Source: an uncultured Thermoleophilaceae bacterium (GTDB taxonomy: Bacteria; Actinomycetota; Thermoleophilia; Solirubrobacterales; Thermoleophilaceae). Taken from it: DNA of 64,000 nt. The stretch lies in NCBI GenBank assembly GCA_963715995.1, contig OY970283.1, positions 2,866,411 to 2,930,410 on the forward strand. Direction: 5' to 3'. Position 1 is the first letter of the stretch; the number at the start of each line of letters is the position of its first letter. Below are positions 3,262 through 56,861 of the stretch, piece after piece. Under the pieces are notes generated by a model. The model was not told where the DNA came from and made no database searches. It worked only from the letters and a program-made list of their open reading frames with translations. The position numbers and the translations under genes were made by a program.

Positions 3262-3996
3262 CTACGGGCAGGCGAAACGCTGCGCGTTGTCGTTCTCGAA
3301 CGACTCGCCGATCGAGTTGTCCGGGTCCGCGGTCACGCGTACGCCGTGGCTGCACGGGGGCCCGGTGAACGAGACGGAACGGGTCTCCCCCGCTGCGAGT
3401 TCGTTGAGCGTGACGGTGTCGAGCACCGCCTTGTCGACGGCCAGCTGGACGTCCACCTGATCAGCCGCCACCTTGCCCTGGTTCGAGACATCCACGCGGT
3501 ACGTGCGCGTGTCGGCGGTCGGGCCGGGCTTCTGGCTCAGGTCGCCGACCACGATGTTCGGAAGCGGCCCGTGGCAGGCCGAGCTGTCGCGCGTGTCGGT
3601 GTCGAGCACCGCCCCCGACGCCGAGAGCCAGCGATAGGTCACGTGCGCGCGATAGGCGCCGCCGACGTGCAGGCCGTCGACGGTCTGGCGCCATGCGTAG
3701 CGGTTGACTCCCGCCGCCGAGGTGTGCCACTGACGCAACGAAGGCAGGTCGAGCTTGGTCCACGACGAGGTGCGGCCGAGGCGCTCGAGCACCTGGAAGC
3801 GGATCTGCATCTTCGATGCGCCGGCGATCGTGTCCATCCGCGCGAAGAAGGTCGCGGTACGGGCGCTGCCCGTGACGTCGCAGGCCACGACCTTGGTCAC
3901 AGGCCCAGGCGCCGCGGGCGCGTCGGCCCGGCGCGCGGCAAGGCCGGCGGCCGGGAAGGCGCCCAGGGCAGCGAGGATCAAGGCGATGCGCAGCAT
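3262..3996 (-). CDS. secreted protein with C-terminal CARDB-like domain
   Basis: Signal peptide MLRIALILAALGAFPAAGLAA. The C-terminal pattern VDVSNQGKVAA...VQLAVD...LAAGETRSVSF...VTADPDNSIGESFENDN is typical of CARDB folds. Confidence 0.6.
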   Translation of the reverse strand: MLRIALILAALGAFPAAGLAARRADAPAAPGPVTKVVACDVTGSARTATFFARMDTIAGASKMQIRFQVLERLGRTSSWTKLDLPSLRQWHTSAAGVNRYAWRQTVDGLHVGGAYRAHVTYRWLSASGAVLDTDTRDSSACHGPLPNIVVGDLSQKPGPTADTRTYRVDVSNQGKVAADQVDVQLAVDKAVLDTVTLNELAAGETRSVSFTGPPCSHGVRVTADPDNSIGESFENDNAQRFACP

Positions 3997-4043
3997 CAGT
4001 GCTCAAACAATCGGCACGAACGCGAGTTGCGTTGGAAAGCTGC

Positions 4044-4259
4044 TCAGCGCGCAGCGGCGCCGCGGCGCGCCTGGCGGCGGCGGAAACGCTCCACCCGGCC
4101 ACCGGTGTCCACGAGCTTCTGCTTGCCCGTGTAGAACGGGTGGCAGTTCGAGCAGATCTCGACGTGGATCTCCGCCTGCGTGGAGCGAGTCGTGAACTCG
4201 TTCCCGCACGTGCAGCGCACGTGAGCCTCTACGTAATCGGGGTGAATCTCAGCCTTCAT
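4044..4259 (-). CDS. rpmE: 50S ribosomal protein L31 (Zn-ribbon type)
   Basis: [22 protein letters not shown]...[13 protein letters not shown], 71 aa, at the 3' end of track ORF 4044..5027. The rest of that ORF is antisense to gpsA. Confidence 0.9.
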
Positions 4260-5788: not shown

Positions 5789-7315
5789 TCAGCCGGCCTT
5801 GGCCAGGTACTGATGGCCGGCCTTCACCACGACGTTGCGCTTCTTGACCAGGTCGCGCACCGTCACCGCGCCCTTCGTCACGCGCACGAGCGTGCCGTCG
5901 CAGCGGTCGTCTGTCAGCCAGGTGGTGCCTCTGATGGTCGCGCTTGCGAAGCGGCCCTTCGTGCGGAACGGGCCGCTACCCGAGCCCCACAGGTGGCGGA
6001 TCGACTTCTTGCTGAGCTTCCTGCTCCTGGCAGCGGTCGCGACCGAGCCAGATGCGGCACAGCGCTTGAAGCTCCCACCGACCAGGGCGAGCTCAGCCAC
6101 GCCGCCGCCGTTCGCCAGCTGCGTGATCTTGAAGACGCCTTCGTAGAAATCGGAGCTGAACACCTTGCCGGTCTGGTCGGCGATCGAGATCCGCACACGC
6201 CCCGCGCGCGCATCCACCACCGCGCCCGGCTGGATCTGCGCCGGGCTCGTGAGCGGCGCCGATTTGCTCGACCCCGGTTGCTGCACGGTCACCGACCCGC
6301 CGGTCGGGCGCATGTCGATCTGCTGCGCGAACACGGGCGCAGGTGGCGGCGGAGGCGCAAGCTCGACCCGGCCGACCTTGTTGCCCGCCGCTTCGGTGAA
6401 CCAGATGTTCCCATCGGATCCGGCGCGGATTCCCTCGGGCCGGCTGGCGGCGGTCGGCACGTTGAACTCGCTGATCGCGCCACCGGGGCTGATGCGCCCG
6501 ATGCGGTTGCCCTGGAACTCCGTGAACCAGATCGCGCCGTCGGGGCCCGTGACCAGCTCGTGCGGAACCGAGCCGGCATTCGGCAGGACGAACTCGGTGA
6601 TCTGACCGGACGGCGTGATCCGCCCGACGCGGTTGCCGCTGTACTCGCTGAACCACACGTTCCCGTCTGGTCCCGGCGCGGTGATTCCCGGCTGGCTGGC
6701 GGCGGTCGGCACGGTGAACTGGGTGATCCGCCCGCTCGGCGTGACACGGCCGATGCGATTCGAGCCGGCCATTGCGACCCAGAGATTGCCGTCAGGACCC
6801 AGCGAGATCCCGTTCGGGACCGAATTCGCAGGCGACACAGGGAACTCCGTGATCCTCCCCGAGGTGGTGATCCGGCCGATCTTGTTGCCGCGGCTCTCGG
6901 TGAACCAGACGTTGCCATCAGGTCCCGCCGTGATGCCCTCCGGGCCGGCGCCGCCCGTGGGGATCGGGTACTCCGCAAGGAGCTTCCCGGCAGTGCTCAT
7001 CTTGGCGATGCCGTTGGCGCTGAACTCGGTGAACCAGATGTTCCCGTCCGGGCCCGGCGCGATCTCGTCCGGGCCGCGCCCGGCGGCGAGCCGGAACTCG
7101 CGGATCGAACCCGCGGGCGTGACGCGCGCGATCTTGTGCGCGCTGAACTCCGTGAACCAGTAGTTGCCGTCTGGCCCGAGCGCCGAGCTGTTCAGGTTCG
7201 CGGCGGACGTCGGGACCCGGAACTCGGTGATGTCGCCCACCGCCGCGCGCGCTGCGAGCGGCCCCAGAACGAGCCCGCAGCACAGCACCAGGGCGACGGC
7301 GATTCGGGCGCGCAC
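5789..7315 (-). CDS. secreted 7-bladed beta-propeller protein, virginiamycin B lyase (Vgb)-like repeats, with extra C-terminal domain
   Basis: Signal peptide, then seven ~42-aa repeats with GPDGN(I/V/L/Y)WFTE(F/S) and ITEF motifs. About 170 further residues follow a PPPPPAP linker. Confidence 0.7.
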   Translation of the reverse strand: MRARIAVALVLCCGLVLGPLAARAAVGDITEFRVPTSAANLNSSALGPDGNYWFTEFSAHKIARVTPAGSIREFRLAAGRGPDEIAPGPDGNIWFTEFSANGIAKMSTAGKLLAEYPIPTGGAGPEGITAGPDGNVWFTESRGNKIGRITTSGRITEFPVSPANSVPNGISLGPDGNLWVAMAGSNRIGRVTPSGRITQFTVPTAASQPGITAPGPDGNVWFSEYSGNRVGRITPSGQITEFVLPNAGSVPHELVTGPDGAIWFTEFQGNRIGRISPGGAISEFNVPTAASRPEGIRAGSDGNIWFTEAAGNKVGRVELAPPPPPAPVFAQQIDMRPTGGSVTVQQPGSSKSAPLTSPAQIQPGAVVDARAGRVRISIADQTGKVFSSDFYEGVFKITQLANGGGVAELALVGGSFKRCAASGSVATAARSRKLSKKSIRHLWGSGSGPFRTKGRFASATIRGTTWLTDDRCDGTLVRVTKGAVTVRDLVKKRNVVVKAGHQYLAKAG

Positions 7316-7336
7316 CCCTCGAAGGTAACCCTCGCG

Positions 7337-10892: not shown

Positions 10893-11299
10893 TCCGTGTT
10901 GACGTTGGTCCGCAGGAAGTCCACGATCTCCTGCGTCGGCGAGCCCGGAGTGAACACCTCGGCTACACCGAGCTCCTTCAGCTGCGGGATGTCGTCATGC
11001 GGGATCGTCCCGCCGACGACCAGCACAACCCCCTCCGCCCCCTGCTCCTTCAGGAGCGCGGCGACCTTGGGCACGAGCGTCATGTGCGCGCCCGAGAGGA
11101 TCGACAGGCCGACTGCGTCGGCGTCTTCCTGGATCACCGTGGCGGCGATCTGCTCCGGCGTCTGGTGCAGCCCGGTGTAGATCACCTCCATTCCGGCATC
11201 GCGCAGAGCGCGGGCGATGATCTTCGCCCCCCGGTCGTGCCCGTCCAAGCCCGGCTTCGCGACAACGACCCGGATCTTGCCTCTGGATGCGGCTTCCAC
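10889..11299 (-). CDS. icmB: B12-binding small subunit of acyl-CoA mutase (methylmalonyl-CoA mutase family, ICM-type partner)
   Basis: [36 protein letters not shown] carries the DxHxxG cobalamin-binding motif. Start uncertain: GTG 11299 or TTG 11338. Confidence 0.75.
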
Positions 11300-30178: not shown

Positions 30179-31164
30179 GGCAGCGCATCGCCGCGGCGAC
30201 ACTCGCCCTCGCGGCGCTGCTCGCCGCGACCGCCGTCGCGGCGCCGCCCGCGCGCGTGACGATCGTGGCCGTCTTCGATCCCATCACCTACGGCGAGAAC
30301 GCCTTCGTGAACGGGCAGCTCGTCGACGATGGACAAGCGGGGCAGCCGGTCGCCCTCGAGCAGTCGCCTCCCCCCTACACCGACTGGGCGCCCGTGGCGC
30401 AGACCACGAGCGACGCCCAGGGCTACTACAGCTTCAAGCTGCATCCAAGCCAGACGATGCAGTACCGCACGAGCTCGCAGGGAACCCCGAGCGAGAAGAC
30501 CGTCCAGGTGAACCTGGCGCCGCGGATCGCGTTCAGCGCGGCGGCGGCCGGCAAGTCGAGCGTGCGCTTCAGCGGCACCTTCGGCCCGGCACTGCTCGGC
30601 CAGAGCGTCGCGATCCAGCGACGCGATTCGCACGGCGCGTGGACCACGATCGCCACGGCCACCCTGCGCAAGGGCGCGACTTTCGGCGGCCGCCTGCGCG
30701 CACGCCACACGATCACGCTGCGCGCGTTCTTCGCAGGCGACGTCGCACACCTGCCCGGCGCGAGCCCGGCCGCGACCGTCGCGCGGGGCAGCGCGCCGAC
30801 GAAGGCGGCGCGGGCGGCGGCGACGAGGGCTGCACGCGCCGCGGCGGCGAGTTGCCGCGCGCCACGCGTGACGAAGGTGGTCGCGACACCGCAGACGCTG
30901 CGGGCCGGAAAGAAGCTGAAGCTGCGCGTGACGGCAGCAATGCCGAGCGGGCGCATCTACGCACTCGATGTCCGCTGGGGCACGGCAGGCCAGCGCGACC
31001 ACTTCACGTTCGCGCCGGCAGCACGCAGGCCGACGTTGAGCAGCGACTTCTTCCACGTCTACGACGACGCCGGGAGCTACACCGTCACCGTCAGGGCGTA
31101 TGGACGTGCAGGCCGCTGCAAGCGAAGCTCGCCACCGCTGCGGAGGACGCTGCGGGTGGCGTAG
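30175..31164 (+). CDS. secreted protein with C-terminal PKD-like domain
   Basis: GTG 30175 (GTGA overlap with the GH2 stop). Signal peptide AALLAATAVAAPPA. The C-terminal FFHVYDDAGSYTVTVRAYG is a PKD-type motif. Confidence 0.55.
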   Translation: MRQRIAAATLALAALLAATAVAAPPARVTIVAVFDPITYGENAFVNGQLVDDGQAGQPVALEQSPPPYTDWAPVAQTTSDAQGYYSFKLHPSQTMQYRTSSQGTPSEKTVQVNLAPRIAFSAAAAGKSSVRFSGTFGPALLGQSVAIQRRDSHGAWTTIATATLRKGATFGGRLRARHTITLRAFFAGDVAHLPGASPAATVARGSAPTKAARAAATRAARAAAASCRAPRVTKVVATPQTLRAGKKLKLRVTAAMPSGRIYALDVRWGTAGQRDHFTFAPAARRPTLSSDFFHVYDDAGSYTVTVRAYGRAGRCKRSSPPLRRTLRVA

Positions 31165-31433
31165 GGCCGCGGCGCCGTGGGTCAGGGCTGCGGCGACGCG
31201 TTTCCGCGGAAACTACCCCAGGGCGGGGACATGGCGGTGCTTTCGGGTGGCGCTTTCGGGTCGCGGTGCGCTCTCCGCCCACGTGTCAGGGCTCGGGCGG
31301 CGTGGTTCGCGAGCACCGACCCTCCGTTGGGCAACCAAGAGGGATCGGTGCTCGCTCGCGAAGCCGCTTTTGGTCTCGCTGTGATCAGTTGTGGTCGCGT
31401 GGCGGACCTGAGTGACCACAGCGGCTCGGGTTT

Positions 31434-31557
31434 CGGGAGCAACCGTCAATTGGTGTCGCATAGCGACAGTTATTGACGGTTGCGGCGCGATCGAGGGGAG
31501 CAACGTTCAATTCTTCCCGCATAGCGGGAACTATTGAACGAAGCGAGCGTTCGAGGG
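31434..31557. repeat. two tandem ~62-nt units, each a 37-45 nt hairpin of identical architecture
   Basis: 31439-31483 is GCAACCGTCAAT-TGG-TGTCGC-ATA-GCGACA-GTT-ATTGACGGTTGC. 31504-31540 is CGTTCAAT-TCT-TCCCGC-ATA-GCGGGA-ACT-ATTGAACG. Confidence 0.8.
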
Positions 31558-31642
31558 ACGAAGCGGCCGGCGCGAGAGCGCAAGCGCCACTCCAGCCACC
31601 CCTTGGCCGAGGCAGTTTCCGAACCGCAGCGAGGGGACGGCC

Positions 31643-31742
31643 GGCGGCAGAGCGGGAAGGCGGGCGGCAGGGCGGGGCGGGCGGCGGCAGGGCGGGGCGG
31701 CTGGCGGCAGGGCGGGACGGCTGGCGGCAGAACGGGGCCGAC
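31643..31742. repeat. 5 x 20-bp G-rich tandem repeat (GGCGGCAG-N12)
   Basis: GGCGGCAG recurs at 31643, 31663, 31683, 31703 and 31723. The + strand meets the G3+N1-7 x4 quadruplex pattern. The - strand is strongly C>G. Confidence 0.8.
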
Positions 31743-31783
31743 GGATAGCAGAACGGCGGCAGCGCACACGCGCCGCCACACCC

Positions 31784-32734
31784 CTACACAGCGTCGTCCA
31801 GCAACCGCTGCGCCGCACTGGCCGGATCCAGGCGCCGCGCCACGACCTCGTCGAGCAGTTCCTGGAGCTGCTCGTCGCCGCGCACCGACTCCTCGAGCCG
31901 GCGCCTCAGCCTGACGGTCGCCAGCTCCATCACCTCGTTGCGCAAGTTGCGCCGCCGACGCTCGTCGAGCGTCCCCTCGGCCTCGATGTGCTCGCGGTGC
32001 TGGGCGATTCGCTCGGCCAGCTCCTCGATCCCCTCCCCTGCCGACGCCTTCGTACGCACGATCGGCACGCGCCAGCTGGTCTTCGGGCCGAGCGACAGCA
32101 CGCCGCGGATCTCGCGGACCATCGTGTCGGTGAGCGGATGCTCGGCCTTGTTGACGACGATCACGTCCGGGATCTCCATGACCCCGGCCTTGAGCGCCTG
32201 GATCGAGTCGCCGGAGCCGGGCATCAGCGCCAGCACGACCGTGTCGGCGTGATCGATGATGTCCACCTCGGCCTGGCCGACGCCGACCGTCTCCAGATAG
32301 ACCTCGTCCTTGCCGGACGCGTCCATGAGGAGCGCCGCCTGGAGCGTTGCCTCGCTCAGACCGCCGAGCGATCCGCGGCTGGCCATCGATCGGATGAAGA
32401 CGCCCGGGTCCAGGAAGTGCTCTGTCAACCGGATCCGGTCGCCCAGCAGCGCGCCCTGGGTGAACGGGGACGACGGGTCGATCGACAGGACCGCCACGTC
32501 GCGGTCGCGCTCGCGCGCGTCCGCCACCAGGCGGCCAATGATCGTCGACTTGCCCACCCCCGGCGGCCCGGTGAAGCCGATGACGGCCGCCTTTCCGGTC
32601 TTCGGATAGACCTGCCTGACGAGCTCCCAGCCCTCGGGGTCGTCGTCCTCGACCAGCGAGATCGCCCGCGCCAGCGCCCGCTTGTCGCCCGCAAGCAGCG
32701 GCCCGACGAGCTCGGATGCGGTCCGGCGAGGCAT
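31784..32734 (-). CDS. meaB: methylmalonyl-CoA-mutase-associated GTPase (MeaB/ArgK family)
   Basis: P-loop GFTGPPGVGKST and VVNKAEHP (NKxD-like). ATG 32734; the upstream 66 codons of the track ORF are antisense to csbD. Confidence 0.85.
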   Translation of the reverse strand: MPRRTASELVGPLLAGDKRALARAISLVEDDDPEGWELVRQVYPKTGKAAVIGFTGPPGVGKSTIIGRLVADARERDRDVAVLSIDPSSPFTQGALLGDRIRLTEHFLDPGVFIRSMASRGSLGGLSEATLQAALLMDASGKDEVYLETVGVGQAEVDIIDHADTVVLALMPGSGDSIQALKAGVMEIPDVIVVNKAEHPLTDTMVREIRGVLSLGPKTSWRVPIVRTKASAGEGIEELAERIAQHREHIEAEGTLDERRRRNLRNEVMELATVRLRRRLEESVRGDEQLQELLDEVVARRLDPASAAQRLLDDAV

Positions 32735-44077: not shown

Positions 44078-44112
44078 GCAAGCGTTTGTAACAAAGCGGG
44101 GCCGAACTGCAC

Positions 44113-44296
44113 GGTTTCCGTCGGCTTGCCCTGGCGCCTCGATGTGGAAACTGCGGCGGCCAAGGCGTGGCTGAAGCGGCGCTTGCGCTCGTCGCGCGGC
44201 GTTTTGGTCGCTCCACCTGCGCCGACTGTGACGTTAACCCCCGATAGCGCGCATAACTTCACAGTCACCACCAAAAGCGGCAGCTAGACCGAGCAC
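44113..44296. repeat. composite intergenic repeat, copy C (inverted, truncated, no minisatellite)
   Basis: 44146-44187 equals the reverse complement of the copy A right module (37/42). Hairpin 44224-44266. 44270-44281 ACCAAAAGCGGC equals the reverse complement of 31364-31375. Confidence 0.65.
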
Positions 44297-44328
44297 AGAG
44301 CCGCTCGAGCGATGACCCGAGCGCTGCC

Positions 44329-45729
44329 CTACCGGCTCGGCGGCACGTACTCCGGGATGCGCAGGTCGCCCAGGGTTGCCGCTGGGCGGCTTGTCCTGCG
44401 CACGCGGGGCTCTGCGTCGGCCGGGATCCGCTGCGGCGTGTGCACCGCGGGGCGCTCCGTTCGGCGCACCTGGCGGTCGCCATAGCCCGTCGCCACGACC
44501 GTCACCCACACCTGGTCGACGACCTTCTCGTCGACCATGGCGCCAAAGATGATGTTGGCGTCGGGGTGCGCGGCCTCGGCCACCGCCTTCGCGGCCTCGT
44601 TGACCTCGAACAGCGAGAGGTCGCGGCCGCCGGTGATCGAGAGCAGGATCGAGCGTGCGCCTTCCACGGACGTCTCGAGCAGTGGTGACTCGACGGCGTG
44701 TCGGGCTGCATCGACCGCGCGGTGCTCGCCAACGCCCATGCCGATGCCGAGCAGCGACTGCCCGGCGTCGGACATGATCGTGCGCACGTCCGCGAAGTCG
44801 AGGTTGATCAGGCCCGGGAGCGTGATCAGGTCGGAGATCCCCTGCACGCCCTGGCGCAGCACGTCGTCGGCGAAGCGGAACGCCTCGACCATCGACGTCT
44901 TCTTGTCGAGCACCTGGAGCAGGCGAGCGTTCGGGATCGTGATGAGGGTGTCCACCGCGTTCGCAAGCTCGGCGACGCCCCGGTCGGCCTGCTCGGCACG
45001 CCGCATTCCCTCGAACGGGAACGGCTTCGTGACGACACCGACGGTGAGCGCCCCGATCTCACGCGCGATCTGCGCGACCACGGGCGCCGCGCCCGTGCCG
45101 GTGCCGCCGCCCGAGCCGGCTGCGACGAACACCATGTCCGAGCCCTTGAGCAGTGCCTTGATCTGGTCGGCGGACTCGAGCGCGGCCTCGCGTCCCAGCG
45201 ACGGGTTCGATCCCGCGCCGAGGCCCCGCGTGAGCTCGCCACCGATGTGCACGAGCTCCGAGGCGCGCGACGTCTGAAGCGACTGCATGTCCGTGTTGAG
45301 CGCGATGAACTCGACGCCCTCGATGCCAGCCTCGATCATCCGGTTGACCGCGTTCACGCCGGCGCCACCGACGCCGACCACGCGCAGGACCGGATGGGCC
45401 ACGCTGTTGGGAGTGGAGATCGCACGCGGCTCGTCACGGCCGTAGCGCGGGCGCGAGACGGGCTCGCGCTCCATCATGTTGTTCGGGATGTCCGGGCTGA
45501 AGACGTCGCGCAGGCGCTGGTCGTAGGCGCGCGGCGCAGGCGTCTCGCGCTCGACGCGCGGTGCCGGCGGCGGCGGGAGCTCGATGCGCTCCGGCTCCTC
45601 GCGTGGCGGCTCGGCAGGAGCGGCTTCGGCGCGCGGCGCCTCCGTCTGCTCCTCGTCAAGCTCGGCTGTCGACCGGAACAGGGCCGAAAGCGGGCCTTCC
45701 CGCATGCTTGCCCGCTTACCGCGATCCAT
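44329..45729 (-). CDS. ftsZ: cell division GTPase FtsZ with ~100-aa N-terminal extension
   Basis: [16 protein letters not shown]7/tubulin signature [22 protein letters not shown], and a C-terminal peptide DLRIPEYV. The ORF start ATG 45729 lies 14 nt inside parA. Confidence 0.9.
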
Positions 45730-52104: not shown

Positions 52105-52425
52105 TCAGGTGGCCAGGGCGGGGACGGCGTCGAGCCACTCGCGCCCGTACTGGCGCATGTCCTCGATGATCGGCACGAGCGCCCGGCCCTTCTCGGTCAG
52201 CGAGTACTCCACGCGCGGGGGAACCTCCGAGAACGTCCGGCGCTCGATCACGCCCTGCTCCTCGAGCGCGCGCAGGCGCAAGGACAACGTTCGCGGCGAG
52301 ATGCCCTCGAGCGAGCGCTCGAGCTCACCGAACCGCGAGCGACCCTCTGACAGGTCGCGGATCAGCAGGATGGTCCACTTGCCGGCAAGGATCTCGGCGC
52401 ACGCGCTGACGGGACAGCACTCCAT
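52105..52425 (-). CDS. HxlR-family (MarR-like) transcriptional regulator
   Basis: CPVSACAEILAGKWTILLIRDL...GISPRTLSLRLRALEEQGVIER...PPRVEYSLTEKG. Confidence 0.85.
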   Translation of the reverse strand: MECCPVSACAEILAGKWTILLIRDLSEGRSRFGELERSLEGISPRTLSLRLRALEEQGVIERRTFSEVPPRVEYSLTEKGRALVPIIEDMRQYGREWLDAVPALAT

Positions 52426-52445
52426 GACTTCAGAAAGTGTAGTGG

Positions 52446-52997
52446 TGGGTGGCGCGCTCGGGCAGGGCTTCCGACGTGTTAGGGCTCAGGCGGCGTGGTT
52501 CGCGAGCACCGACCCTCCGTTGGGCAACTAAGAGGGATCGGTGCTCGCTCGCGAAGCCGCTGTTGGTCTCGCTGTCTCGGTTCGCTCGTGGCGCCGCGCT
52601 TCTGGTCGCGAGTTTCACGTTAAGCCGCGTATATCGGCTCAATGTGAAACTCGGGCTTCGAGTGGCAGGTTGACCACGCGGTTCGCGGGTGAAGGTGCCA
52701 CTCGGGCATCGAGTGTGACCTCGACCACGCTATACGTGGTTAACGTCACAGTCGCCGGTCAGTGAGCGCGTTTGCGCGGGTTCGAAGGCCGGCGGGGGCG
52801 AGATGGCCGGCGAGAGAACGCAAGCGCCAGACCAGCCACCCCTTGGCCGAAGCAGTTTCCAAACCGCGGTGCCAGAGCGGGGGGCGGAGAGCGGCGAGGG
52901 GACGGCCGGCGGAGAGCGGCGAGGGGCCGGCGGGCGGCAGAGCGCCGAGGGGACGGCTGGCGGCAGAACGGGACGGCCGGCGGAGAGCAGCGACGAG
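52446..52997. repeat. composite intergenic repeat, copy B
   Basis: Same module order and orientation as copy A. Left module 52446-52578 includes a 47-nt hairpin at 52502-52548. Hairpins at 52610-52652, 52659-52704 and 52714-52750. Right module 52805-52868. Minisatellite 52883-52997. Confidence 0.8.
52883..52997. repeat. G-rich tandem repeat, units of 25/25/26/20/~19 bp (GGCGG(A/C)(G/A)AG...)
   Basis: Units start at 52883, 52908, 52933, 52959 and 52979. Related to, but with a different period from, the copy A minisatellite. It ends 6 nt from the AIM24 stop codon. Confidence 0.75.
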
Positions 52998-53002
52998 CCG
53001 AG

Positions 53003-53722
53003 CTACCCGCCCAAGCTCTTCAGCAACCCGCCCGCGCCGCCGCCGCCGCCCATCGGCGACACGCTCACGCGGCCTTCGCTCGGCTGCACGAGCACCCAGC
53101 CCGTCCCTTCGAACGCGACCTGGATCGACTCGCCCGAGCCGCGGCCTATCAGCGTCTTCACGTTGATGTCGGTCTTCATCGAGGTGCGCACCCCTGACGA
53201 CCACGTGATCGCTGCCTGCGGATCGGCGAACGTCGGCGCGTCGCCCACGTCCAGGAGCACCGGCGGCCCGTCCGAGAGCAGCGCCACGAAACCGGTTCCC
53301 TTCAGCGAGACGTTGAAGAGGCCGCCCGTCAGCAGGCCGCCGGCCCCCTCCACGCGCGTGATGTCCCAGTCGATGCCGGCGTCGAACGCCAGCAGGTTCG
53401 CCCCGTTGCACGTGATCTGGTCGTCGTCCAGGCGCAGGATGTGGATCTCCTGCGCCTGCTCGGCCAGGAACAGCTCGCCCGACCCGGTGCACTTCATGAA
53501 CTTCACGTCCTCGCCCGTGGTCATCTTCTTCACGAGCCTGGCCATCCCGCCTGCGCCGGCGTGCTCGAACTTGACCTCGCCCTGGTAGGCGACCATCGAG
53601 CCGAGCTTGGCCTGGATCGTGACGTCGCGCAGCGAGACCTTGAGCAGCTTCGAGTTCTGGAGCGCGAACGACTCCGTCGACTGGGTCTCGGCGAATTGCT
53701 GGAGCGCCGCTTCCGCAGGCAT
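53003..53722 (-). CDS. AIM24 (DUF124) family protein
   Basis: GSMVAYQGEVKFEH...FMKCTGSGELFLA...WSSGV...G-rich tail, the typical AIM24 beta-rich pattern. Confidence 0.7.
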   Translation of the reverse strand: MPAEAALQQFAETQSTESFALQNSKLLKVSLRDVTIQAKLGSMVAYQGEVKFEHAGAGGMARLVKKMTTGEDVKFMKCTGSGELFLAEQAQEIHILRLDDDQITCNGANLLAFDAGIDWDITRVEGAGGLLTGGLFNVSLKGTGFVALLSDGPPVLLDVGDAPTFADPQAAITWSSGVRTSMKTDINVKTLIGRGSGESIQVAFEGTGWVLVQPSEGRVSVSPMGGGGGAGGLLKSLGG

Positions 53723-56006: not shown

Positions 56007-56249
56007 GTAGTTACTCGTCGCTCCTTGATGCAGTCAGCGGTCGCGCAAGGCTTCCGGGCCAGAACCTCGACGGAGGCGGGGCCTCCCCGAAAGCCTATAC
56101 AGCGGTGTCTGCGATTCGGAACATCCTGTTCCCGTTGAGAACGAACGCCCAGATGGCCGGCAGGCCTGCCTACCCCTGTGAGCACATCGTTCAAACTCGA
56201 ACATTCAACGAGGGCAGAGGACCGTTTCTTCGGTGATCGCTATATTCCT

Positions 56250-56398
56250 CGGCGCCTAAGCACTGGGGACGGTCCCAGAGCACGGGGGAACCATTGCGGT
56301 CTGTGGCCTGCCAGCCTGGACCGCGGGGGCGAATCGAGCGCATTGCCGCGCTCGTAGGGACCTTGGTCCCGAGCCCGACAGCTCACCTCGTCGGCGCC
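56250..56398 (+). promoter_or_regulatory. c-di-AMP riboswitch (ydaO-yuaA class) in the 5' leader of the RlpA-like gene
   Basis: P1 CGGCGCC (56250) pairs with GGCGCCG (56392). Conserved blocks are GAGCACGGGGGAACCA, CGCGGGGGCGAATC and GUAGGGA...CCCGAGCCCGACAGCUCACCUCGUCGGCG. They match the B. subtilis ydaO blocks as I recall them. Confidence 0.75.
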
Positions 56399-56411
56399 GA
56401 TTCAACACAAC

Positions 56412-56861
56412 ATGTTTCGACCGAGCGCGACAATCGCTGCGCTCACGGCGGCCGTTCTCGCGGCTTCCGTGACGCTCCCCGCCGCGGCGTCCACCCCGAC
56501 GTCCACCGGCGGCACCTCGCCGACCCCTGCTGCGAGCGGCGACACGAGCTCGCAGTCGGCCCAGGCCGCCTCGGCCGACTACCGCCCGGCGCGGGCCACC
56601 TGGTACGGCCCCGGCCTATACGGAAACCGCCTGGCGTGTGGCGGAAAGCTCACGCACAGCACCCTCGGCGTCGCCCACAAGAGCCTGCCATGCGGCACGA
56701 AGGTCGCGCTCAAGTACCACGGCCGGACCATCGTGGTCCCCGTGGTCGATCGCGGCCCATACGCGCGCGGGGTGAGCTATGACCTCACCGAAGCCACGGC
56801 CCGCCGCCTCGGCATGACCGAGACGAGCCGCGTGGCCGCTGCACCGCTCGACGACAACTGA
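56412..56861 (+). CDS. secreted RlpA-like double-psi beta-barrel (DPBB) cell-wall protein
   Basis: Signal peptide, Thr/Ser/Pro linker, then ATWYGPGLYGNRLACGGKL...HKSLPCGTKVAL...VVPVVDRGPY...DLTEATARRLG. Confidence 0.8.
   Translation: MFRPSATIAALTAAVLAASVTLPAAASTPTSTGGTSPTPAASGDTSSQSAQAASADYRPARATWYGPGLYGNRLACGGKLTHSTLGVAHKSLPCGTKVALKYHGRTIVVPVVDRGPYARGVSYDLTEATARRLGMTETSRVAAAPLDDN

Follow-up and report, generated by a model that had tools for sequence, protein, structure and literature searches.

The 545-nt block at positions 52446-52990 (+) of the window, the 64-kb stretch of DNA analysed here, is probably one copy (copy B) of a lineage-restricted family of non-coding composite interspersed repeats. 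The family was previously unseen, and the kind of repeat it represents is ordinary for bacteria. Three copies of the element lie inside the window, two of them (A and B) in plus and one (C) in minus orientation. As judged from matching sites in relatives, comparison shows that the copies were added to intergenic spacers beside stop codons after the split from the nearest sampled relatives.

Copies A and B share their modules and differ in their centres

The original prediction had aligned copies A and B by hand, counting 98/102 identical positions between 52474-52575 and 31281-31382 and 45/49 between 52819-52867 and 31579-31627, and a direct count reproduced both figures exactly. Machine alignment by blastn, MAFFT and a repeat finder agreed with the hand counts. 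A blastn search of the intergenic region against the window gave 95.2% identity over 105 nt for the module 1 region (E 1.7e-43) and 76.5% over 196 nt for module 2 and the G-rich repeats (E 3e-33). The homology of the two copies also spans both termini and the G-rich tandem repeats. The stretch between the modules had been described as unalignable and as consisting of stem-loops, and both observations were borne out. The global alignment score of the two centres (196 nt in A, 243 nt in B) was just 2.5 standard deviations above shuffled sequences, their best local alignment score (23) was lower than the shuffle maximum (28), and both centres folded far better than shuffles (RNAfold z on the plus strand, -6.3 for A and -6.8 for B).

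A third copy, C, also emerged from the repeat finder and blastn; it is shorter and occupies 44107-44328 on the minus strand. When the window was searched with nhmmer --max, the profiles built for the two modules and for the hairpin unit recovered A, B and C only.

The settings claimed for copies A and B were likewise correct. Copy B lies between the stop of AIM24 (53003-53722, PF01987) and the start of hxlR (52105-52425, PF01638), both on the minus strand and both confirmed by Pfam; read in the direction of the element, it runs antisense to both genes. Copy A lies between convergent genes, namely MeaB (-), identified by Pfam, whose stop is at 31784, and a secreted protein (+) that ends at 31164. 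Copy C is bordered by ftsZ (Pfam FtsZ, stop 44329) and by the gene for gamma-glutamyltranspeptidase (GGT; Pfam, start 44077). Orientation relative to the adjoining genes is not constant among the three copies. Pfam assigned the remainder of the window to housekeeping genes. Among named sequences, the nearest homologues of AIM24 and FtsZ belong to MAGs labelled 'Thermoleophilaceae bacterium'. Seven 126-nt direct repeats at 6347-7199 were rejected as a further element, since they are coding repeats that correspond to the beta-propeller blades of a Vgb-lyase/NHL-type protein (5789-7336, -).

The element is a composite of modules and hairpin cassettes

Comparison of the copies shows the element order to be left terminus, module 1, hairpin cassette, module 2, optional G-rich repeats and right terminus. 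The borders of copy B were set by the empty sites in five related loci (L003-L007) and by homology to A and C. Its left terminus (52446-52487, +) begins TGGGTGGCGCGCTCGGGCAGGGC and is common to copy A (31245-31266 and 31171-31202) and copy C (44300-44328, reverse complement), where it abuts the ftsZ stop. The segments 52446-52468 in B, 31245-31266 in A and the reverse complement of 44300-44328 in C follow the consensus G-G-C-R-S-CGC-K-Y-TCGGG. Copy A was assigned to 31245-31751 (+) and may reach left to 31165. A second, more diverged left-terminus-like stretch at 31171-31202, within the segment 31165-31244, suggests nested or duplicated ends. The same extra left part of copy A contains a perfect palindrome of 14 nt, GTTTCCGCGGAAAC, with TAC after it (31197-31214).

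Module 1 forms a long hairpin (about -50 kcal/mol), after which A and C read GCCGCTTTTGG and B reads GCCGCTGTTGG. In copy B the hairpin is 76 nt long (52488-52563, +; RNAfold -48.4 kcal/mol) and sits in a block, 52471-52575, that is 95% identical to copy A over 105 nt; the corresponding hairpin of A is at 31295-31370 (+). The sequence 3' of module 1 reads TTTTGG in A and C and TGTTGG in B. Copy C carries a reduced module 1 in which the upper stem is cut to 18 nt and which ends GCTGCCGCTTTTGG at 44268-44284 (-).

Between module 1 and module 2, copy C has one hairpin unit, copy A two and copy B three. The units of B are ~45-nt hairpins of the beta type (52609-52653, 52659-52704 and 52710-52754, +) with a period of ~50 nt and the linker GGGCWTC, and they are followed by an extra 40-nt hairpin of another type (52754-52793, +; RNAfold -23.0 kcal/mol). 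Copy A carries a hairpin at 31386-31424 (+) and two units of the alpha type (31439-31483 and 31500-31544, +), and copy C a single beta hairpin (44223-44267, -).

Module 2 of copy B (52805-52875, +; nhmmer E 2.8e-21) has as its core CGCAAGCGCCnnnnCAGCCACnCCTTGGCCGnnGCAGTTTCC at 52819-52860; the cores of A and C are at 31579-31620 (+) and 44146-44187 (-). In copy B, G-rich tandem repeats with periods of 25 and 20 nt follow (52868-52974, +; four to five copies by TRF). This tract is 58% G, 24% C and 2% T, and is C-rich on the AIM24 mRNA strand. Copy A has about five G-rich 20-nt repeats (31630-31735, +), and TRF found none in copy C. The right terminus of copy B, GGCCGGCGGAGAGCAG (52975-52990, +), matches A at 31736-31751 (+) and the reverse complement of 44107-44125 in C, the copy that lies on the minus strand, with the consensus GCCGRCGGA-N2-7-GCAG.

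Kinship among the copies is not uniform along the element. Module 1 groups A with B, and the hairpin subtype links B with C (18/21 identical positions in the 3' arm). The module 2 of C has its nearest match in A (88%), with B further off (79%). This mosaic kinship suggests exchange among a larger number of family members than the three visible here.

The element is non-coding and folds strongly on both strands

Open reading frames over the elements have flat GC1-3, with GC3 of 0.67-0.74 vs 0.89-0.95 in the neighbouring genes. Reading frames are broken between A and B, and stops differ in most frames. A concatenated six-frame translation of modules 1 and 2 found no protein homologues among 5.8 billion clusters. 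We rejected a protein-coding gene on these three grounds: the element is non-coding. If it moves, it must therefore be moved in trans.

The next possibility is that the copies are multi-copy structured non-coding RNA genes, either small RNAs or cis-acting RNA modules, that were duplicated and kept for an RNA function. Under this reading, module 2 would serve for recognition as a single strand and module 1 would be a hairpin resembling a terminator, a role consistent with the TTTTGG found 3' of module 1 in A and C. The folds are very stable, and the hairpin units carry compensatory double changes, in the beta units of copy B at stem positions 4, 6, 7 and 8. Among the beta units, the same stem positions read TTTCAC/GTGAAA, GGCA/TGCC and GTGAC/GTCAC. 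These compensatory changes within each hairpin subtype indicate that pairing was kept while the sequence drifted. Module 2 is conserved in sequence rather than in structure; covariation is absent from it, and it includes an invariant small hairpin, GCCA-CCCCU-UGGC, with a C-rich loop. Summed hairpin energies also favour the element strand over the opposite one (122.8 vs 109.7 kcal/mol in A and 157.4 vs 140.1 kcal/mol in B), but G-richness alone can explain this bias. The minus strand moreover folds equally significantly (RNAfold z = -7.65 for the centre of B), and G.T and A.C mismatches in the hairpin units number 4 vs 3, which gives no strand signal. Strand assignment from G.U pairs was dropped as ambiguous.

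Searches for a known RNA or for a promoter also spoke against an RNA gene. At gathering thresholds, no Rfam family matched the element, and permissive Rfam scans of A and B returned chance-level matches only (E above 1). Simple promoter and terminator scans found neither in A or B; the copy C region has one terminator-like site (44183-44199, +), opposite to the orientation of C, which is no more than shuffles yield. Finally, centres that are wholly different, in an element absent from every sampled relative, would be unusual for a functional RNA. Taken together, we consider a conserved RNA function unlikely as the explanation of the family.

Several more specific identities were tried and rejected. 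ARAGORN found no tRNA in support of a tRNA-derived origin. A sigma-54 promoter on the reverse strand of module 2 (TGG-N9-TTGC) fits A and B, and its GG is lost in C; to our knowledge, Actinobacteria generally lack sigma-54. Neither GTTAACG nor GTTATTG, the candidate integron attC sequences, fits GTTRRRY. The half-sites of parS seen in hairpin B_h1 are not shared by the other units, and a G-quadruplex motif is canonical only in A.

The sole Rfam match in the window, outside the element, was a c-di-AMP riboswitch at 56243-56411 (+) (RF00379, 57.5 bits, E 1e-10). It overlaps the 5' end of the stop-to-stop ORF 56358-56861, and most likely lies just upstream of this DPBB_1 / lytic-transglycosylase-like gene. 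Such a riboswitch with a lytic-transglycosylase-like gene is a typical actinobacterial pairing.

The family appears confined to the source organism or its very close kin

An exact search with the module-2 core pattern CAGCCACNCCTTGGCCGNNGCAGTTTCC gave 0 matches in 596 Gb of species-representative genomes and 0 matches in JGI metagenome contigs. Related loci were collected from Thermoleophilaceae-related metagenome contigs (95 loci, 711 kb in all), and neither nhmmer, with the profiles of both modules and of the hairpin unit, nor blastn found a copy in them. Several of these loci share a match of 22-25 nt to module 2 near MeaB; it lies in a coding region and was dismissed as chance. No copy was found in plasmids or phages (blastn, distant mode) or in viral contigs (two patterns), and an AIM24-based search of genome contigs retrieved no relatives. 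These negatives confine the family, as far as is visible, to the source organism or very close kin, and with no copy outside the window the size of the family rests on three copies. Our literature search found no description of small interspersed repeats in Thermoleophilia.

Two of the related loci contain hairpin repeats that are unrelated to the element. In L077, two ~45-nt hairpins (ACGTGGAAAATCTC...) lie at 10960-11075, just past the MeaB-matching region, and in L058 three tandem 80-nt hairpin-bearing units lie at 3960-4200, ~450 nt downstream of the MeaB match. From these sequences, intergenic hairpin repeats look common in Thermoleophilia-like contigs, each family being local.

Relatives lack the element at all three sites

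The original prediction had proposed an empty-site comparison of orthologous loci. We ran it for all three copies and found relatives without the element at each site. At site B, the distance from the AIM24 stop to the hxlR ATG is 20-40 nt in L003-L007, whose AIM24 proteins are 93-96% identical to that of the window, where the distance is 577 nt. In the window, the 545-nt element and a 12-nt native spacer, CGACGAGCCGAG (52991-53002, +), separate the hxlR motif from the AIM24 stop; the spacer resembles the L003/L004 spacer GGCGAGCGAGC. The native motif upstream of hxlR, CCACTACACTTTCTGAAGTC (52426-52445, -), lies outside the element and is present at the empty sites: it is exact in L005, where the empty junction reads TGA CCACTACACTTTCTGAAGTC ATG, has one or two changes in L003, L004 and L007, and is more diverged in L006. 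The empty sites at the three loci, together with the varying orientation of the copies, support the claim that the element constitutes a separate unit and does not act as an hxlR leader. It had also been called autonomous. This description is accurate as to its independence of any neighbouring gene, but it does not extend to the element's own capacity, which includes no coding sequence.

The sequence upstream of the hxlR ATG reads ACTACACTTTCTGAAGTC in the window, L003-L005 and L007, and comprises a TANNNT -10-like hexamer (TACACT; TATCCT in L006) and a 10/12 palindrome, ACTTTCTGAAGT. By these features it is probably the core promoter and operator of hxlR, with a near-leaderless start. In L001 (10721-12390) and L002 (2401-4420), whose AIM24 is 89% identical, the AIM24-hxlR spacer holds a different insert of ~1.6 kb with a 650-aa BNR-repeat gene on the opposite strand. 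The spacer appears, from these contigs, to be a recurrent spot of insertion or variation.

At site A, where 619 nt separate MeaB from the secreted-protein gene in the window, L009, L010 and L012 are without the element. By blastn synteny, the interval in these three loci is ~830-960 nt shorter than that of the window and so too short to hold the element. The junction was read in L010 alone (MeaB 88% identical); there the stops of MeaB and the convergent gene overlap (CTAG). The secreted protein of the window has an extra C-terminal extension of ~126 aa (30785-31164, +) that ends ...FFHVYDDAGSYTVTV and is PKD-like by eye; the L010 homologue is without it.

At site C, the order ftsZ-GGT is kept, and the spacer measures 43 nt in L090 and L091 and 25 nt in L092-L095 vs 251 nt in the window. 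L090 is an NCBI Thermoleophilaceae MAG and L091 a JGI contig, with FtsZ 89% identical. L003 also has no element 3' of ftsZ; its downstream gene differs. The empty sites in relatives at all three loci indicate that all three copies are additions in the source lineage. Orthologous genes of the window and its nearest relatives are 82-89% identical in DNA. Module 1 of A and B, at 95%, exceeds this range. The copies therefore arose after the split or were homogenised later.

GTAG lies at or near the left borders, and no target duplication was found

Comparison of filled and empty sites revealed no target-site duplication at B (L003-L007) or C (L090-L093). Nor did we find clear terminal inverted repeats: in copy B, the best match of the left end to the reverse complement of the right end is 5 nt. 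In copy A, the left end matches the reverse complement of the right end at 17/22 positions, offset from the termini.

Each of the four stop codons in contact with an element reads G-TAG (31161-31164, 31784-31787, 44329-44332 and 53003-53006, on the gene strand) vs 3/35 for the other genes of the window, and a further GTAG (52438-52441) stands outside the left border of B. The tetranucleotide lies 0, 0 and 3 nt outside the left borders of C, A and B. It is already present at the empty sites of C (L090) and of B (L003-L007 except L006); the relatives' AIM24 orthologues end in TGA, as does FtsZ of L003. GTAG also forms the foot of REP sequences, where RAYT enzymes cut. Since the regularity was noticed post hoc, we treat it as a lead and not as a test.

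These borders raise the possibility that an HUH/Y1 enzyme (RAYT or IS200/IS605-like), with its gene in another part of the genome, mobilises a hairpin-ended element in the form of single-stranded DNA and inserts it beside GTAG without target duplication. Termini that are not inverted, the lack of target duplication, the abundance of hairpins and the pre-existing GTAG with its excess of G-TAG stops would all fit such a route. On the other hand, three of the cases are simply TAG stops after G, the offset in B is 3 nt, and the individual hairpin units are not preceded by GTAG. Furthermore, no transposase or RAYT-like gene, and no other such enzyme gene, was found in the 64-kb window, and no REP or REPIN approaches the element in size or composite build. 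We therefore regard this route as very unlikely.

Presence and absence alone give no direction of change, and the AIM24-hxlR spacer is variable, as the 1.6-kb insert of L001 and L002 attests; nevertheless, the idea that the sequence is ancestral (intergenic or regulatory, such as a leader of hxlR), kept here and deleted in the sampled relatives, is so improbable that we set it aside, because it needs independent clean deletions at three unrelated loci in many relatives, because the copies share 95% identical modules despite unrelated flanking genes, and because the conserved hxlR motif is intact outside the element.

Proposed spread and consequences

We thus return to an interspersed repeat added in the source lineage; its absence from the matching sites of relatives makes it an ordinary kind of bacterial "junk" repeat. 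Mobility is deduced here from presence and absence alone. Spread would be passive, effected by an enzyme encoded elsewhere in the genome or by recombination that copies between family members. The mosaic pattern, with a shared module 1, a shared subtype and differing centres, supports spread in trans or by recombination.

Once inserted, the element would be co-transcribed with its neighbours. In A and B, the G-rich array directly follows the stop codon of the minus-strand gene. The mRNA past the MeaB and AIM24 stops accordingly runs through ~120 nt with 58-59% C, 24-25% G and 2% A, and then into the hairpins. This C-rich tract resembles a Rho-loading tract, and together with the hairpins it may act as a barrier to transcription or RNA decay. 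At copy B, hxlR would then be cut off from the pilT-AIM24 transcript upstream, its own conserved motif being left intact. Copy C has the opposite orientation and no C-rich tract; a barrier thus cannot be the whole story.

A more novel interpretation is that the family represents a new class of hairpin-array mobile DNA. A single-strand HUH transposase encoded elsewhere would target GTAG, often as a G-TAG stop, and the cassettes would be kept palindromic by the enzyme or a replication fork reading folded single strands; alternatively, module 2 would be a co-opted functional RNA or protein-binding site. We judge this proposal quite unlikely.

Under the preferred reading, that of an ordinary interspersed repeat, the family by itself opens no long-standing question. 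Small interspersed repeats are well catalogued in few model bacteria only, and this family is a clean example, with defined borders at three filled sites, each of which has matched empty sites. Its build is composite and combines hairpin cassettes that can be exchanged with a short-period tandem array inside the element. Elements of this sort break up metagenome assemblies, give false ORF calls in high-G+C genomes and can rewire operons: 545 nt of hairpins now part hxlR from AIM24.

Comparison with known repeat elements

MIRU-type repeats were rejected, as the periods of 20 and 25 nt are not multiples of 3 and GC3 is flat. MITEs (such as Correia, ERIC, RUP and Nezha) resemble the element in being small, non-coding, multi-copy, strongly folded and intergenic, with presence and absence that differ among relatives. 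In contrast to the A+T-rich MITEs, the element is G+C-rich, and our search revealed neither of the two defining marks of a MITE, terminal inverted repeats or target-site duplications, so membership was rejected.

The BIMEs of E. coli are the next closest to the element after BOX, although it is not a member of them and shows no sequence relation to them. REP/BIME sequences consist of extragenic palindromic units joined by conserved linkers, form mosaic clusters beside stops without target duplication, have GTAG at their border and have been proposed as barriers to transcription or RNA decay. The element likewise has palindromic units and linker motifs in a mosaic beside stops, GTAG at its border, no target duplication and a proposed role as a barrier. 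Its units differ in being complete hairpins of ~45 nt, all in one orientation, preceded by TCGAG or GGGAG instead of a GTAG foot. Nothing in REP sequences corresponds to the long module 1 or to module 2, and no RAYT gene was seen in the 64-kb window.

The closest analogue in build is the BOX element of Streptococcus pneumoniae, a composite intergenic repeat of the form boxA-boxBn-boxC that is highly folded, found near gene ends and restricted to its species (PMC3049150). The element shows the same arrangement of fixed 5' and 3' modules around a variable number of tandem middle units, each able to fold by itself. The likeness extends to high base pairing, location near gene ends, probable co-transcription and restriction to one species group (PMC3049150). 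No sequence relation to BOX is apparent: the plasmid and phage collections yielded no similarity, and the element has ~70% G+C and is actinobacterial. It is also much longer (220-545 nt or more), its middle units belong to two subtypes whereas BOX has one conserved boxB, its end modules do not pair as inverted repeats, and it has an extra G-rich short-period tandem array. The element is thus analogous to BOX in build and is not a member of that family.
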